Source of the DNA: a virus
Taxonomy: Duplodnaviria; Heunggongvirae; Uroviricota; Caudoviricetes
DNA: 32,667 nucleotides
Strand: one strand, 5' to 3'
IMG/VR virus record: IMGVR_UViG_2563366964_000008
Location: 1-32,667 of that record
The position numbers were made by a program, and so were the translations under genes. How positions within the stretch are numbered: the stretch's first letter is position 1; each line of letters starts with the position of its first letter. The notes below the pieces were generated by a model. It searched no databases, was not told the origin of the DNA, and was given only the letters and a program-made list of their open reading frames with translations. Positions 1 to 5,555 of the stretch are shown here, in pieces.

Positions 1-1128
1 TCACAACGCTACTTTGCTCCATCCTTTACCTCGATCATCATGATAACGATCGGTTTGTTGTTGTGTTTTATGACCAAGTAGTTTTTGTGTGTCTAACCCC
101 TGTTCTTTGTACAGACGTTCAGATAAAGACCTTTGTTCATGGAATGTCGCGGGCGAGCCATCACCCCAGTCGATTCCTGCCAAATCCCTCGCTTTACTGA
201 AATTCATCGTCAATGTGTTGGATTTAACCTGTGCCCCACGTTCTGCCTGTGAAGTAGTACGGAAAAAATGTACAAGGTATGGGCTGACTGCATAGTCACG
301 GCAGCGGGCAACTACATCGCGTAAACTCCAGTTAATCGCGTTGAGACGAAGAGAAAGAGGAATTGCGATTTTGCTCCCGGTCTTTTCCTGAATGACATGG
401 AGATGATCATCCCAAATATCACTAAATTTCATACGCGAGATATCACCTAACCGCTGGCCAGTAACCAGTGCTAACAGCATAGCATTCCCCATATAACGAT
501 GACTGGCATCTGCGATATCAAAGATTTTTTGCCATTCATCAAGATTCAACCGTTGTCGGGTAATTTTTCTTCTGGGCTGCTTTGTTGCTAATGCTGGATT
601 ATAGCCAGGAGGTACTTCTCCGTAGTGTTGCGCCTCCTTGAATACATCAATCAGGACGGAACGAACTACTTGTGCCATTCTTGGTTGTCCGGCAGCTATA
701 TACTCATCAAGCAATTGTGCTATATCCCTTACATCAACGGCTGAGATCAACTTCATTCCTGCTCGCTCCCTGAGCAAAGATACTGGTTTTGCTTTCTGCT
801 TATAGGTGTTGAGTCTTATATCACCACTTTTCAGCCTGTTATCCTGGATCGCTTGATAGCGATCTAACCAGGTTGACGTTGTGATTGATTTCACTTTGCT
901 GGTTGCGATCCTGTCACTGATAGCTAGAATCTGTCGAGTTCTTTGCTCAGCTAGGCGTGTATTGGCTTCAGTGGCAATAGCAATGGCTTCGGCTTCGTTC
1001 GTTCCCAACGCATGAAATTTCCCTGTCACGGGATGCTTATACCGCCAATAGACTTTATTTACCTTTCTACTATAAAGCGGATATAAGTTAGGGACTGAAA
1101 CATTATTCTTACGCGGTCTGGCTGCCAT
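1..1128 (-). CDS. int: Tyrosine integrase (phage integrase family). The ATG at 1126..1128 is preferred over the GTG at 1129..1131.
   Basis: Track ORF of 376 aa on the minus strand; N-terminal Arg/Lys-rich arm-binding region and a C-terminal catalytic-domain pattern typical of lambda-type integrases; overlapped by an excisionase-like ORF. Confidence 0.9.
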   Translation of the reverse strand: MAARPRKNNVSVPNLYPLYSRKVNKVYWRYKHPVTGKFHALGTNEAEAIAIATEANTRLAEQRTRQILAISDRIATSKVKSITTSTWLDRYQAIQDNRLKSGDIRLNTYKQKAKPVSLLRERAGMKLISAVDVRDIAQLLDEYIAAGQPRMAQVVRSVLIDVFKEAQHYGEVPPGYNPALATKQPRRKITRQRLNLDEWQKIFDIADASHRYMGNAMLLALVTGQRLGDISRMKFSDIWDDHLHVIQEKTGSKIAIPLSLRLNAINWSLRDVVARCRDYAVSPYLVHFFRTTSQAERGAQVKSNTLTMNFSKARDLAGIDWGDGSPATFHEQRSLSERLYKEQGLDTQKLLGHKTQQQTDRYHDDRGKGWSKVAL

Positions 1129-1354
1129 CACTCAAAATCCGTTGCAAAAGTAATGAGTCATTTTTCTTGATTACTGGTGTTACCAACTCCCCAACTAACT
1201 CGGCGTCCTCACGCACTCGCCATAACCGGCCTTGCTTCATGGCTGGTGGACAAAATAAATTCTGCTTAGCATAACGACGCAATGTGGACACACTTGGAGG
1301 ATTACTTCTGTATTTTTCAGCAGCCCATTCTTCAAGAGTTAACATTTGAAGCAT
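1109..1354 (-). CDS. xis: Excisionase-like small DNA-binding protein
   Basis: 81-aa ORF immediately upstream of and overlapping int by about 20 nt; AAGGTGA Shine-Dalgarno 6 nt before the ATG; basic, Trp-containing small protein typical of Xis/AlpA-type proteins. Confidence 0.7.
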   Translation of the reverse strand: MLQMLTLEEWAAEKYRSNPPSVSTLRRYAKQNLFCPPAMKQGRLWRVREDAELVGELVTPVIKKNDSLLLQRILSDGSQTA

Positions 1355-1368
1355 ATGCGATCACCTTA

Positions 1369-1551
1369 TTACTGCACTAACTGCTGAGTCTCAGCATCGA
1401 CCCAACAAGATCGGTTAGTTTCTCCACAAAACAGAGAAGAACACCTGCGGTGGATGGATTGGGTTATGACCCTGTCATCTGGAGATACTCTTCTCTGTTT
1501 TGTAAAAAGGGCGGTGCCAGAAAGGACTAAGGAAAAAACAGACACCTCCAA
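1369..1551 (-). CDS. Hypothetical small protein upstream of xis (doubtful)
   Basis: 60-aa ORF whose stop abuts the xis ribosome-binding site; sequence not strongly protein-like. Confidence 0.2.
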   Translation of the reverse strand: MEVSVFSLVLSGTALFTKQRRVSPDDRVITQSIHRRCSSLFCGETNRSCWVDAETQQLVQ

Positions 1552-1655
1552 AGCAGCGGCTGTTGTTACTGGATTATCACAATGTTAAAGGTTCTCATTC
1601 CTGAAAACATTTAGCCGTTGTATGCCTGCTTTTAGCCACATCAGGCGAGGTGGAC

Positions 1656-1707
1656 CTGGTTATTCCCCAACAACAAGGATTCGGTTAATCTGGTTATCCC
1701 CAACAAC
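1656..1707. repeat. Two imperfect direct repeats (ctggttattccccaacaaca at 1656..1675 and ctggttatccccaacaac at 1690..1707) just upstream of the 1723 ORF
   Basis: Read directly from the sequence; spaced about 34 bp start to start. Confidence 0.45.
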
Positions 1708-1722
1708 GCAAAAGGAAAAGAA

Positions 1723-2157
1723 ATGTCCGGTAATATCTACACGTTGTACAAATCCCACTGTGAAAATGTTGGAAAGTATCGGGGCATTGAAATCAGTGGG
1801 GTAGTGTCATCAGTCGAAATAAGCAAAGTGGAATCAAGGGCAACATTACTTACTCTTCTGGATCTTGTCTTACATGAGCACCGGAAGAAATTCGGCACTC
1901 CCTATAATCAGTTGAATGGAAAAAAGGCTCTGGTTCACCTTATTCTGATGAAGCATCACTGGATGCCAAAACAGATTAATGAGATGAAATTTGATGAACT
2001 TCTTCTTTCAATTCAGGATGAACTCACGCTTGATAAAATAAGCGTAACCGCCCAGAAATTTTTAGATTATCGAGACTGGAGATCACAAATTCATCACTTT
2101 GATGATTTTGACGAAAATGAATGGGATCCTAATTTGTCTGCACAATATCTAAAGTAG
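1723..2157 (+). CDS. Hypothetical 144-aa protein, antisense to the int-xis early-left operon (accessory gene candidate)
   Basis: ORF with an AAAGGA Shine-Dalgarno before the ATG; plausible protein composition; no family recognised. Confidence 0.5.
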   Translation: MSGNIYTLYKSHCENVGKYRGIEISGVVSSVEISKVESRATLLTLLDLVLHEHRKKFGTPYNQLNGKKALVHLILMKHHWMPKQINEMKFDELLLSIQDELTLDKISVTAQKFLDYRDWRSQIHHFDDFDENEWDPNLSAQYLK

Positions 2158-2335
2158 CATCCTGTGATAAAACTGTGATTTCCTGATCCAGTTTTTTTAA
2201 GGAGCCTATTGTTTCCTGTCGATAAGACAGCAATTCACGAAGCTGGTTTATAGCTGCCAGCTTCTTTGTCATCCACTCGTAAATTTCCTCATCTGTGTAG
2301 CTAGGCGCGACGATTTTTGGTTCTGTTTTGTGCAT
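2129..2335 (-). CDS. Hypothetical small protein (68 aa from the ATG at 2335), first gene of the leftward early transcript
   Basis: GAGGAGG Shine-Dalgarno 6 nt upstream of the internal ATG on the minus strand; 3' end converges on and overlaps the 1723..2157 ORF. Confidence 0.4.
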   Translation of the reverse strand: MHKTEPKIVAPSYTDEEIYEWMTKKLAAINQLRELLSYRQETIGSLKKLDQEITVLSQDATLDIVQTN

Positions 2336-2583
2336 TTCACACCTCCTCAAGTTATCAGTTACTTGTTGATGGGGACCAGATTGTTAAAGAGCTAAGTGTC
2401 CTGTAGGGCGCTTTTTTGTTGCTAACGAATCATCCTGGACTTCATATGCCCCAGGCGGCTACTTCGTGGGCGTCCTGCCTGTTCGTTTTTGACATTTACT
2501 GACTGCTTACGACACATGCACCGTGTTGCAACCAGATTTTGTTGTAATCCTGTAGTTGGTCTGGAACAAAAGATAAAATTAAA

Positions 2584-2620
2584 TTGCGAGATATGCAAGT
2601 TATATTTGCGAGATATGCAA
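2584..2620. promoter_or_regulatory. Two identical 15-bp direct repeats, TTGCGAGATATGCAA (2584..2598 and 2606..2620), operator-like (candidate OL)
   Basis: Seen in sequence; 13/15 identical to TTGCGTGATAAGCAA in the cI-cro intergenic region. Confidence 0.45.
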
Positions 2621-2630
2621 ATTTATGGGT

Positions 2631-2654
2631 AATAAAAAGCCACCTTTCGGTGGC
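2631..2654 (-). terminator. Rho-independent terminator downstream of cI (stem gccacc/ggtggc, loop of 4, U-run on the minus strand)
   Basis: Hairpin 2639..2654 followed on the minus strand by a T-run (plus-strand aataaaaa, 2631..2638). Confidence 0.5.
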
Positions 2655-2674
2655 CGATGGATGGGATATTGAGG

Positions 2675-3367
2675 TTAATTATGTCTCTTAAGGGTTTGCG
2701 ACTGACTGATTAAGACCTTTCCAAAGACCATGAATCGGTGTTCGTTTTCGCTAGTAATTCCCCATTCACGGTAAATCTGGTTATCAGAAATCACCAGCAG
2801 TTTGTCAGGAATCATTTGAAGTCTTTTAACGTATATTTTGTCATCAAAACCAAAGACATATATACCATCACCATCAAACTGATTGATGCTGACATCAACG
2901 AAGATGAGATCTCCTGGCTCAATGGTTGGACACATACTGTCCCCACGAACGTTGATAACTTTGATGTGATTGGCTGGTCGTCCGCCGAACATTGATACAG
3001 CATTATCAGTTCTGTATTCGATGGCATGAATCACATCAATGACATCACCGCCCTGGATAAGGCCATTTCCCGCACTGGCACTGATATCCAGCATTTCAAT
3101 ACGGAACACATCCTTCACCTGCGCAACATCCTCATTATTACTGTTTTTATATACAGTATTACTTTTGTGGGCAGAGGTAAAGAGATCAGCAATATCAACA
3201 CCTAAGCTCTTGGCAATATTACTCAGTGTTTGTTCGGTAAATTGTTTTTGCTTACCCGTTTCTAAGCGCGAGATGTTCGCCGCATCTACTCCTATCGCTT
3301 CAGCGAGATCGGCGATTTTCATGTTCTTCGCTTGGCGAAGTTGTCTGACTCGGTTTCCTATGTTCAT
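2675..3367 (-). CDS. cI: CI-type prophage repressor (N-terminal HTH, C-terminal LexA-like S24 autopeptidase domain)
   Basis: 230-aa ORF; N-terminal HTH pattern (QLRQAKNMKIADLAEAIGVDAANISRLE); C-terminal GDSM serine motif and downstream Lys (YVKRL); divergent from a Cro-like gene. Confidence 0.9.
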   Translation of the reverse strand: MNIGNRVRQLRQAKNMKIADLAEAIGVDAANISRLETGKQKQFTEQTLSNIAKSLGVDIADLFTSAHKSNTVYKNSNNEDVAQVKDVFRIEMLDISASAGNGLIQGGDVIDVIHAIEYRTDNAVSMFGGRPANHIKVINVRGDSMCPTIEPGDLIFVDVSINQFDGDGIYVFGFDDKIYVKRLQMIPDKLLVISDNQIYREWGITSENEHRFMVFGKVLISQSQTLKRHN

Positions 3368-3464
3368 GCGTTTATTACATTTCTTTATTGCGTGATAAGC
3401 AAATCAACTTGCGCAAAATAATTGCGTGAAATAACATGCATAACGCGCAATATTTGGAGGGCGT
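3368..3464. promoter_or_regulatory. Immunity-switch intergenic region (candidate OR with divergent promoters for cI and cro)
   Basis: 97-bp gap between divergent cI and cro; repeated TTGCG/CGCAA motifs including TTGCGTGATAAGCAA (3388..3402) and the palindrome TTGCGCAA (3409..3416); GGAGG Shine-Dalgarno before cro. Confidence 0.6.
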
Positions 3465-3725
3465 ATGCAATCACCATTACGAAATGTGCGTAAGGCGCAT
3501 GGTTTCACTTTGCAACATGTTGCTGCGGGTGTTCAAGTCAATCCAGCGACGTTGAGTCGTATTGAGAGGCTGGAGCAGATTCCATCTATCGAGCTTGCAG
3601 AACGTTTAGCCAATTTTTTTAAGGGTGAAGTCAGCGAAATGCAGATTCTTTATCCGGCACGTTTTCAATCTAGCCAAAACCAGAATGGGTTTAAACCACA
3701 GGAACAGGAGGTGAACCGTGGGTAA
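3465..3725 (+). CDS. cro: Cro-like HTH regulator
   Basis: 86-aa ORF divergent from cI; HTH pattern (FTLQHVAAGVQVNPATLSRIE). Confidence 0.75.
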   Translation: MQSPLRNVRKAHGFTLQHVAAGVQVNPATLSRIERLEQIPSIELAERLANFFKGEVSEMQILYPARFQSSQNQNGFKPQEQEVNRG

Positions 3726-4269
3726 GCATCACTGGAAAGTAGAAAAACAGCCTGAGTGGTACGTGAAAGCTGTCAGAAAAACTATCGCAGCGTTGCCGGG
3801 GGGGTACGCTGAAGCTGCTGACTGGCTGGATGTAACAGAGAACGCATTATTTAACCGCCTTCGTGCCGATGGCGATCAGATTTTCCCGCTGGGATGGGCA
3901 ATGATTTTGCAACGTGCTGGTGGAACTCACTTCATTGCTGACGCTGTGGCGCAGTCTGCAAATGGCGTCTTTGTGTCTCTTCCTGATGTCGAGGATGTGG
4001 ACAACGCCGATATCAACCAACGCCTGCTGGAGGTCATTGAACAGATCGGCAGTTATTCAAAACAGATTCGTTCAGCAATTGAAGACGGTGTAGTGGAACC
4101 GCATGAGAAGACAGCAATTAACGACGAGCTGTACCTCTCAATTTCGAAGCTGCAGGAGCATGCAGCACTGGTCTACAAAATTTTTTGCATTTCAGAAAGT
4201 AATGACGCCCGCGAGTGTGCAGCTCCGGGCGCCGTGGCGTGTCGTGACTGTGGAGAAACTAACGCATGA
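3718..4269 (+). CDS. CII-like early regulatory protein (recalled resemblance to the CP76/YdaT-type family); GTG start
   Basis: 183-aa ORF directly after cro; AGGAGG Shine-Dalgarno 6 nt before the GTG at 3718; position equivalent to cII. Confidence 0.5.
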
Positions 4270-4604
4270 ACAGTTTAACAACACACTACCGTCGCTCGCA
4301 ACTGATTGCGCTTCCTGTACCGGGTGGAAAAGCGAAGGTGGAGTATTGCTATGCAGTAAATGTACCAGGTGGCAGGGTAATTGTAACCCACAGCTTTGCA
4401 GAGTGGGCTGTGGGTGATTTTAACCGGCAAAAGGAGACAGTCCTTTGCGACAAGTTAACCGCTGGTTCAAAGATCACTACGGAGTACCCGTCAGAGTCAT
4501 TCGTTGGGAGCCGGAAACACAACGGGTTATCTACCTCCGCGAAGGCTATGAGCATGAATGCTTCAGTCCGCTCGAACAGTTTCGTCGTAAATTCAGGGAA
4601 ATAG
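4266..4604 (+). CDS. Hypothetical protein; the 3' third is probably not coding in this frame (see the 4445..4624 ORF)
   Basis: Track ORF of 112 aa; the N-terminal about 58 aa look protein-like, the C-terminal part is Ser/Asn-rich and low-complexity. Confidence 0.35.
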
Positions 4605-4624
4605 AGGTCGGTCATGAGCACTAA
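4445..4624 (+). CDS. Hypothetical 59-aa protein with a TTG start, absent from the ORF track
   Basis: AAGGAG (4431..4436), 8-nt spacer, TTG (4445); translation [59 protein letters not shown] is strongly protein-like; stop at 4622..4624 overlaps the start of the next gene. Confidence 0.35.
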
Positions 4625-5555
4625 ATTAACCGGCTATGTATGGGATGGTTGCGCTGCGTCAGGCATGAAATTATCCAGCGTGGCAATTATGGCCCGCCTG
4701 GCTGATTTCAGTAATGACGAAGGTGTGTGCTGGCCATCAATTGAAACCATTGCCCGTCAGATTGGCGCGGGGATGAGTACCGTCAGAACGGCTATCGCAC
4801 GGCTGGAAGCAGAAGGCTGGTTAACGCGTAAGGCGCGTCGCCAGGGTAACCGCAATGCGTCGAATGTTTATCAGCTTAACGTTGCGAAGCTTCAGGCAGC
4901 GGCATTTTCTCAATTGTCAGATTCTGACCCGTCAAAATCTGACGCATCAAAATCTGACCCGTCAAAATTTGATGCGTCGAAATCTGGCAAAAAAGCGGGT
5001 TTTCACCCGTCAGAATCTGGCGGGGATCCGTCAGTAAAATCAAAACATGATCCGTCAGATAAAAAAACTTCTCGTCCGGACGCTTCGCAACCGGACACGC
5101 AGACGGCTGAACAGGAGTTTTTAACTCGCCATCCTGATGCGGTTGTATTCAGCCCTAAAAAGCGCCAGTGGGGAACGCAGGATGATTTGACCTGCGCACA
5201 GTGGCTCTGGAAAAAAATCATCGCCCTGTACGAGCAGGCCGCCGAATGTGACGGCGAGGTGGTTCGTCCCAAAGAACCGAACTGGACAGCCTGGGCAAAC
5301 GAAATTCGCCTGATGTGTGTGCAGGATGGTCGTACTCACAAACAAATCTGCGAGATGTACAGCCGCGTCAGCCGCGATCCGTTCTGGTGCCGTAACGTGC
5401 TCAGCCCGTCGAAGCTGCGGGAAAAATGGGATGAGCTTTCCCTGCGCTTATCGCCGTCCGTCAGCACGTACACCGAAAAACGCGAAGACCCGTACTTCAA
5501 AGCCAGTTACGACAACGTGGACTACAGCCAGATCCCGGCAGGATTCAGGGGGTGA
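4614..5555 (+). CDS. Replication initiator / replisome organiser (O-like; N-terminal HTH, internal iteron-encoded repeat linker)
   Basis: 313-aa ORF; N-terminal winged-HTH-like region; central low-complexity repeats (DPSKSDASKSDPSKFDASKS) encoded by tandem 15-bp DNA repeats; position after cII-like gene. Confidence 0.8.
   Translation: MSTKLTGYVWDGCAASGMKLSSVAIMARLADFSNDEGVCWPSIETIARQIGAGMSTVRTAIARLEAEGWLTRKARRQGNRNASNVYQLNVAKLQAAAFSQLSDSDPSKSDASKSDPSKFDASKSGKKAGFHPSESGGDPSVKSKHDPSDKKTSRPDASQPDTQTAEQEFLTRHPDAVVFSPKKRQWGTQDDLTCAQWLWKKIIALYEQAAECDGEVVRPKEPNWTAWANEIRLMCVQDGRTHKQICEMYSRVSRDPFWCRNVLSPSKLREKWDELSLRLSPSVSTYTEKREDPYFKASYDNVDYSQIPAGFRG
4914..5068. repeat. Candidate origin of replication: about 5 tandem 15-bp iterons (CCGTCAAAATCTGAC-like, 4914..4988) plus 3 degenerate copies (5006..5066) and an A-run
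   Basis: Direct tandem repeats read from the sequence, located inside the initiator gene as in lambda ori. Confidence 0.6.

Follow-up and report, generated by a model that had tools for sequence, protein, structure and literature searches.

Gene content of the immunity region

The window, by which we mean the whole analysed stretch of 32,667 nucleotides, carries a leftward cI gene and a rightward cro gene on either side of a 97-bp intergenic region, with a cII-like gene after cro and with xis and int at the left end (Table 1). The cI product matches HTH_3 (PF01381, 1.2e-11) and Peptidase_S24 (PF00717, 6e-19), and its translation contains both an Ala-Gly pair (SASAGNG) and a GDSM serine motif; judged by these features, it is a CI/LexA-type self-cleaving repressor. 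A search of the PDB found no close solved homologue of CI. The recognition helix of Cro (PATLSRIE) is similar to that of CI (AANISRLE), so that Cro probably binds the same sites. The cI gene ends in an intrinsic terminator, which the first-pass annotation had drawn as a hairpin at 2631..2654; the terminator is real and these coordinates are roughly right, with the stem itself running from 2655 to 2638.

The left arm of the window (1-2350) is very short and consists of a 68-aa leftward ORF without a Pfam match, a convergent ECs1072-family gene (1723-2157, rightward), xis, and int. In an E. coli prophage that is 99.5% identical over 2100-3800, additional genes, yfdR and yfdT among them, intervene, and the int/xis pair is not the same. 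Two further hairpins were observed in this arm. A rightward intrinsic terminator, AAGTGTCCTGTAGGGCGCTT followed by TTTTGTTG, lies on the plus strand at 2394-2413, between the 68-aa ORF and the leader RNA described below; its hairpin relies on G-T pairs and is therefore weaker on the leftward strand, and it may insulate the immunity region from rightward transcription of the ECs1072-family gene. A leftward terminator-like hairpin, TGGGCGGTTACGCTTA followed by TTTTATCAAG, lies on the minus strand at 2039-2054, downstream of the 68-aa ORF and antisense within the ECs1072-family gene, and is possibly a tL, which PL transcripts would have to get past on the way to xis and int.

Table 1. Genes, candidate promoters, dyads, and RNA features of the immunity region and left arm, in window positions.
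Feature	Position	Strand	Remarks
int	1131..1	-	
xis	1354..1109	-	
First leftward ORF, 68 aa	2129..2335	-	ATG at 2335 after GGAGG; hypothetical protein in RefSeq
Structured RNA, 62 nt	2425..2486	-	three helices; in the putative PL leader
Candidate PL	2570..2598	-	-35 TTGCAT (2598..2593), 17-bp spacer, -10 TATCTT (2575..2570); predicted start near 2563
Putative OL dyad, promoter-proximal, TTGCGAGATATGCAA, 15 bp	2584..2598		exact copy; joint top matrix score, 17.7; arms nearly invariant
Putative OL dyad, promoter-distal, TTGCGAGATATGCAA, 15 bp	2606..2620		identical copy, 22 bp start to start; arms kept, centre hypervariable
cI intrinsic terminator	2630..2655	-	stem 2655..2638, then TTTTATT; annotated in the SfII record
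cI repressor gene, 230 aa	2675..3367	-	HTH_3 and Peptidase_S24
Candidate PRM	3402..3397 and 3379..3374	-	-35 TTGCTT, 17 bp, -10 TGTAAT; read from the sequence
Putative OR dyad, cI-proximal, TTGCGTGATAAGCAA	3388..3402		overlaps the candidate PRM -35; 13/15 match to the OL repeat
Candidate PR	3409..3437	+	-35 TTGCGC (3409-3414), 17 bp, -10 TAACAT (3432-3437)
Putative OR dyad, cro-proximal, ATGCATAACGCGCAA	3436..3450		covers the 3' part of the candidate PR -10 and the area of the start; 12/15 match
cro	3465..3725	+	HTH_3
Weaker third right dyad, GTGCGTAAGGCGCAT	3486..3500		within cro codons 8-12; fifth-best matrix match, 11.4
CP76-type cII-like gene	3718-4269		after cro

Immunity type and its relatives

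The window represents a common lambdoid prophage of the SfII/mEp460 type. Its immunity region is 99.3% identical to that of Shigella phage SfII, with homology starting at position 2424, and the CI proteins of the two are 100% identical. From 2515 on, identity is about 90% to mEp460, the PhiR63_1 group, the Stx2a phages 1447 and WGPS2, 1720a-02, and one Stx2k phage; CI of the mEp460 group is 96% identical. Part of 2100-3800 is matched in 2,648 of 5,426 complete E. coli genomes, and most of it in 397. A graded series of more distant CI proteins is available in ST64B (83% amino acid identity), Kp4871-1 (71%), Eeyore (67%), and ENT47670 (50%). An IMG/VR search with the CI protein returned near-identical copies only, all but one at 100% identity, and this set is usable for population variation and not for divergence.

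The left flank is common with the heteroimmune phages SfIV, SfV, and vB_EcoS-569R4 up to about 2490-2495. Because this sharing stops there, the repeats described below fall within the part that is specific to the immunity type and moves together with the cI/cro allele.

Public records of SfII, mEp460, and the Stx2a types annotate cI, cro, and the terminator, and no operators. We found no operator description and no report of binding or transcription for this immunity type in the records and literature searched, and the operator sequences had no match in that literature. A 2025 paper describes the repressor specificity of a phage whose closest CI relative is mEp460_4F5 as unknown and mEp460_4F5 itself as unstudied; the CI concerned is not necessarily of the window type (PMC12315714).

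Paired dyads beyond the cI terminator

Starting 10 bp past the T tract of the cI terminator, TTGCGAGATATGCAA occurs twice in exact copies on the plus strand. The first-pass annotation had reported this pair, its place just beyond the terminator, and a 13/15 match in the cI-cro region, and all three observations held: the right-hand sequence, TTGCGTGATAAGCAA, differs at 2 of 15 positions. It had also described the similarity as one to an OR half-site, which proved mistaken. Each repeat is an imperfect palindrome (TTGCG-N5-yGCAA) that matches whole OR dyads and is thus a full operator rather than half of one; with arms TTGCG and TGCAA around the centre AGATA, the repeat and its reverse complement agree at 10 of 15 positions overall and at 9 of the 10 in the arms (TTGCG vs TTGCA). 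A search of the whole window with up to three mismatches found four copies only, all flanking cI (2675-3367). The fourth, at 3436-3450, reads TTGCGCGTTATGCAT on the minus strand and has three mismatches to the OL repeat.

Given the length and composition of the window, chance would yield about 0.001 cases of an exact 15-mer repeated directly at an offset of up to 30 bp. The bare pattern TTGC-N7-GCAA with one mismatch occurs in the window no more often than expected (17 times vs 22); the signal is the fuller motif and its placement. We then scored the window with a symmetric weight matrix built solely from sites of ST64B, Kp4871-1, and Eeyore, leaving the window sites out. The OL pair and the two OR dyads came out as the top four: 2606 and 2584 (17.7 bits each), 3436 (16.6 bits), and 3388 (15.9 bits), followed by a fifth hit at 11.4 and a sixth at 8.4. 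Markov-random sequences contain 0.15 sites at or above the fourth-best score vs the 4 observed. Left of cI, two sites rise above background, and a third, comparable to lambda OL3, was not found there. We consider it very probable that the two repeats are OL operators for CI and Cro.

On the right, the two strong dyads lie 48 bp apart, with the palindrome TTGCGCAA (3409-3416), at the candidate PR -35, midway between them. A candidate for an adjacent middle site (OR2), TTGCGCAAAATAATT at 3409-3423, scores below 9 in the window, 15.3 in Kp4871-1, and 10.4 in Eeyore, and a middle OR site is recognisable only in the latter two phages. The weaker third right dyad is near-perfect in Eeyore (TTGCGAAAATCGCAA) despite amino acid changes. 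We infer PR and PRM from their hexamers and their relation to the dyads; the candidate PR hexamers are kept in ST64B, Kp4871-1, and Eeyore with differing spacers, and the position read for PRM would leave almost no leader ahead of the cI ATG.

Conservation of the layout across phages

The DNA flanking cI in ST64B, Kp4871-1, Eeyore, and ENT47670 for the most part cannot be aligned with the window, and each of these four phages has two TTGCG-N5-CGCAA-type dyads directly after the cI terminator and the same dyad in the cI-cro region. Across seven phages with CI identities of 50-100%, OL consists of two dyads, 22 bp apart in the window, 22-24 bp apart in five relatives, and 15 bp apart in ENT47670. 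The first two OR dyads keep a fixed spacing of 48 bp in all seven, and a third right dyad stands 50 bp beyond the cro-proximal one in six, ENT47670 being the exception. The OL-to-OR distance is 782-785 bp in six of the seven and 860 bp in ENT47670. SfII, mEp460, and the Stx2a phages WGPS2 and 1447 have the same OL/OR layout as the window, with no difference in kind. In alignments of phages of the same immunity, TTGCG and GCAA are invariant and the dyad centres differ.

Heteroimmune phages carry different repeats at the same place, and the left pair co-varies with OR at the level of the module. SfV and SfIV have their own repeat pair, TGTAyCTCnTGGGTACA, which matches their own cI-cro region, and 569R4 has CTAACTTAACTTAG, which matches its own OR. 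Pantoea AH07, Yersinia YeP1, Pectobacterium ZF40, and Salmonella SW-37 likewise have their own repeat pairs at this position, and these surround strong TTGACA-17/18-TACATT or TAATAT promoters.

Variation within the immunity type

Population variation was assessed in 62 IMG/VR contigs with essentially identical CI, which include 45 indel-free haplotypes. Nucleotide diversity (pi) across the 62 contigs is 0-0.013 in the dyad arms, 0.19 in the centre of the distal dyad, and 0.13 in the 7-bp inter-operator spacer; at cI third codon positions it is 0.004, a baseline that may be biased because the contigs were picked by CI identity. Natural variants of the distal centre include ATCTC, ACCTC, ATTTC, and ATCAC. 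Conserved arms around a free centre are the pattern expected for a site of a dimeric HTH protein. The -10-like TATCTT does not vary among the 45 indel-free haplotypes.

Diversity peaks at the distal centre and spacer (2599-2615) and at the 3-base stretch that separates the cro Shine-Dalgarno sequence from the ATG (3461-3463), and several of these hypervariable sites have three alleles. This hypervariability may fine-tune the switch, or it may mark a hot spot of mutation or recombination. Diversifying selection may act on the dyad centres and the cro spacer and so adjust the lysis-lysogeny threshold. One contig (L031) has a single operator copy through a 22-bp deletion at the equivalent of 2584-2620, which looks like recombination or slippage between the direct repeats.

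A candidate leftward promoter at OL

The first-pass annotation had placed the repeats over a leftward early promoter. The comparisons above support its OL assignment; the promoter is softer. Read on the minus strand, the order is TTGCATATCTCGCAA-ATATAAC-TTGCATATCTCGCAA-TTTAATTT-TATCTT, and the candidate -35, TTGCAT, is formed by the first six minus-strand bases of the proximal operator. This promoter matches the consensus at 7 of 12 positions, and a promoter and terminator consensus scan of 1100-3800 at a threshold of 9/12 reported no promoter at OL; the PL assignment is therefore made purely from comparative position. The TTGCnn-17-TATCTT geometry is present in five of six close relatives (the window, mEp460, Stx2a_1447, Kp4871-1, and Eeyore); the hexamer at the -10 position of ST64B is TAATTT. 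Both dyads of ENT47670 overlap a 10/12 promoter that precedes an N-like gene. In mEp460, the annotated ORFs immediately left of OL run on the opposite strand. About 75 nt separate the candidate PL from the leader RNA, and in other phages the RNA starts 10-25 nt after a strong promoter. On balance, we favour the exact PL as assigned, with appreciable room for doubt.

Two other promoter placements were considered and rejected. One puts a -10 or a -35 between the two operators, where SfIV or Kp4871-1 has it; in the window this spacer is hypervariable, and its sequence is not conserved in the mEp460 group. The other is a rightward promoter with TAAAAT (2574-2579), which has no acceptable -35 and would fire into the cI terminator.

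A conserved structured RNA in the putative PL leader

Downstream of the candidate PL, the minus strand encodes a structured RNA with three helices: P1 (ACGAA/UUCGU) closes the junction, P2 surrounds the invariant GGCAGGACGCCCACGAAGUAGCC, and P3 (CCUGG/CCAGG) carries a conserved 12-nt loop. Searching IMG/VR for the invariant core as a pattern recovered 112 different variants, 38 of which were used for covariation. In these 38, pairing holds in 97.4% of cells vs 73% in shuffles, and double-sided changes number 116 vs 35. The covariation score is 0.639 vs 0.168 in shuffled alignments, none of 500 shuffles reached it, and slid controls gave at most 0.144. On the leftward strand, the helices contain 29 G-U pairs and 32 mismatches, and on the opposite strand 18 and 43, which is only a slight leftward preference.

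A covariance model (R1) finds one copy in the window, at 89.5 bits, and no second copy in the PR operon. The RNA is common to heteroimmune lambdoid phages of Escherichia, Salmonella, Klebsiella, Yersinia, Pantoea, and Pectobacterium. In all annotated cases examined (AH07, YeP1, ZF40, and SPN3UB), it lies 100-170 nt downstream of the repressor gene, past the terminator, and in AH07, YeP1, ZF40, and SW-37 it is preceded by the repeat pair around PL. Such a position favours leftward transcription that begins at OL/PL. No arginine-rich N-like ORF was found after the RNA in the relatives.

A search of 1300-4700 against Rfam 15 with E up to 1 gave no match, and the sequence of the RNA had none in the literature searched. 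Model R1 did not match HK022 putL or putR and scored 7.5 bits (E 5.4) on the HK639 leader. We rejected an identity with HK022 put or the HK639 leader, with which short words (GAAC, AGGATGA) are shared without a structural match.

Alternative explanations

The soft promoter invites a reading in which the repeats, at the 3' end of cI, are CI/Cro sites without a promoter of their own; they would then serve only to anchor a loop or assist OR as an auxiliary operator, or to block transcription that enters cI from the left. The 7/12 match and its absence from the scan are in keeping with this, and OR dyads 48-50 bp apart might need a remote partner. The nearly constant OL-to-OR distance (782-785 bp in six of seven phages) also fits, though cI length alone explains that constancy. 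Against it, TATCTT is positionally kept 17 bp from the operator TTGCnn and invariant in the population, relatives and heteroimmune phages of the same layout have unmistakable promoters under their repeats, and the oriented, conserved RNA just downstream needs a leftward promoter. We regard a promoterless role as unlikely.

The sites might instead belong to another regulator, for example a CII-like (CP76/YmfL) activator, with a PI- or PRE-like promoter as the result. The lambda CII promoters PI and PRE use TTGC-N6-TTGC; the repeats do contain TTGC tetramers, a CP76-family cII-like gene is present, and xis and int follow further along that strand. However, the tetramers form inverted arms 7 bp apart and direct copies 22 bp apart, and TTGC-N6-TTGC does not occur. 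The same dyad on the PR -10/+1 and the PRM -35 is a CI/Cro pattern, and the motif changes with the cI/cro allele, whereas the cII-like gene is about 95% identical in heteroimmune SfIV. A CII-like regulator is thus highly improbable as the owner of these sites. Least credible is that the repeat arose by a recent tandem duplication and has no function, or that it matches by chance. The window copies are identical and one contig has a single copy, as such an origin might produce, but chance predicts almost no repeats of this kind, the copies differ from each other in relatives with their arms kept, the pair persists at 50-83% CI identity between unalignable flanks, and variation avoids the arms. 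Operators for CI and Cro remain our preferred reading of the repeats.

Comparison with known lambdoid switches

The arrangement resembles lambda OL/PL in its odd-length dyads left of cI, which share the OR motif and lie downstream of the cI terminator over a candidate leftward promoter, and in a repressor that combines an HTH with a self-cleaving S24 domain. Adjacent OL sites in lambda are spaced by about 24 and about 20 bp, comparable with the 22 bp of the window. The differences are several. Lambda has three OL sites (OL1-OL3) and the window two; the lambda operator is a 17-mer and that of the window a 15-bp TTGCG-N5-CGCAA. The lambda proximal site covers the -10 and spacer, whereas that of the window covers the -35 and spacer of the candidate PL. 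OL and OR are about 0.8 kb apart in the window vs 2.3 kb in lambda. The lambda OR sites are adjacent (OR1-OR2-OR3), whereas the OR dyads of the window stand 48-50 bp apart with the PR -35 between the strong pair. Lambda N and nutL are absent from the window, which has a different, conserved leader RNA instead. With two OL sites and an OR spacing of 48-50 bp, details of lambda such as OL3 and the octamer loop cannot simply be assumed.

The 933W repressor reportedly binds adjacent sites non-cooperatively, and the operator sequence and repressor allele of that phage are unrelated to those of the window. Phage 933W resembles the window in having a lambdoid immunity region with two left operators, OL3 being absent (PMC3317979); three left operators are a feature of lambda and not of the class.

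N is reportedly absent from SfII, SfV, and SfIV (PMC3851460). Like HK022 put, the leader RNA is structured, encoded in cis, and located shortly after PL in a lambdoid phage without N. It differs in that put consists of two stem-loops, whereas the RNA of the window is a three-helix junction closed by P1, in single copy, with none in the PR operon. By analogy, it may be an antiterminator of a new class that acts in cis and needs no protein, equivalent to put in function but with another fold; we offer this as a tentative suggestion that is doubtful at present.

Proposed regulation of leftward transcription

In a lysogen, dimers of the LexA-like CI would occupy both OL dyads. The proximal dimer would cover the PL -35 and half of the spacer and so keep RNA polymerase off PL. 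The second site lies two helical turns upstream, and cooperative binding would probably raise occupancy; cooperativity is plausible because identical sites 22 bp (about two turns) apart are on the same face of the DNA. A loop between OL and OR is carried over from lambda as an analogy and may apply here. RecA-stimulated self-cleavage of CI would free PL, and the transcript would run leftward through a leader of about 230 nt that contains the structured RNA, through the 68-codon ORF, and on toward xis and int.

Implications for SfII/mEp460-type phages

The proposed mechanism is textbook; what is new is that the operators have been read out for an immunity type that seems to have had no earlier description of them. 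This type is also found in the Shigella serotype-converting phage SfII and in Stx2a-converting phages. The operator motif TTGCG-N5-CGCAA provides a handle for predicting homo- and heteroimmunity, and operators of this type, once known (two at OL and two to three at OR), are targets for binding studies and a basis for prophage-induction reporters, Stx phages included. The hypervariable operator centres are also worth a further look. The leader RNA is the part that could add something new: if it is an antiterminator, an RNA widespread in lambdoid phages without N would let PL transcripts reach xis and int.
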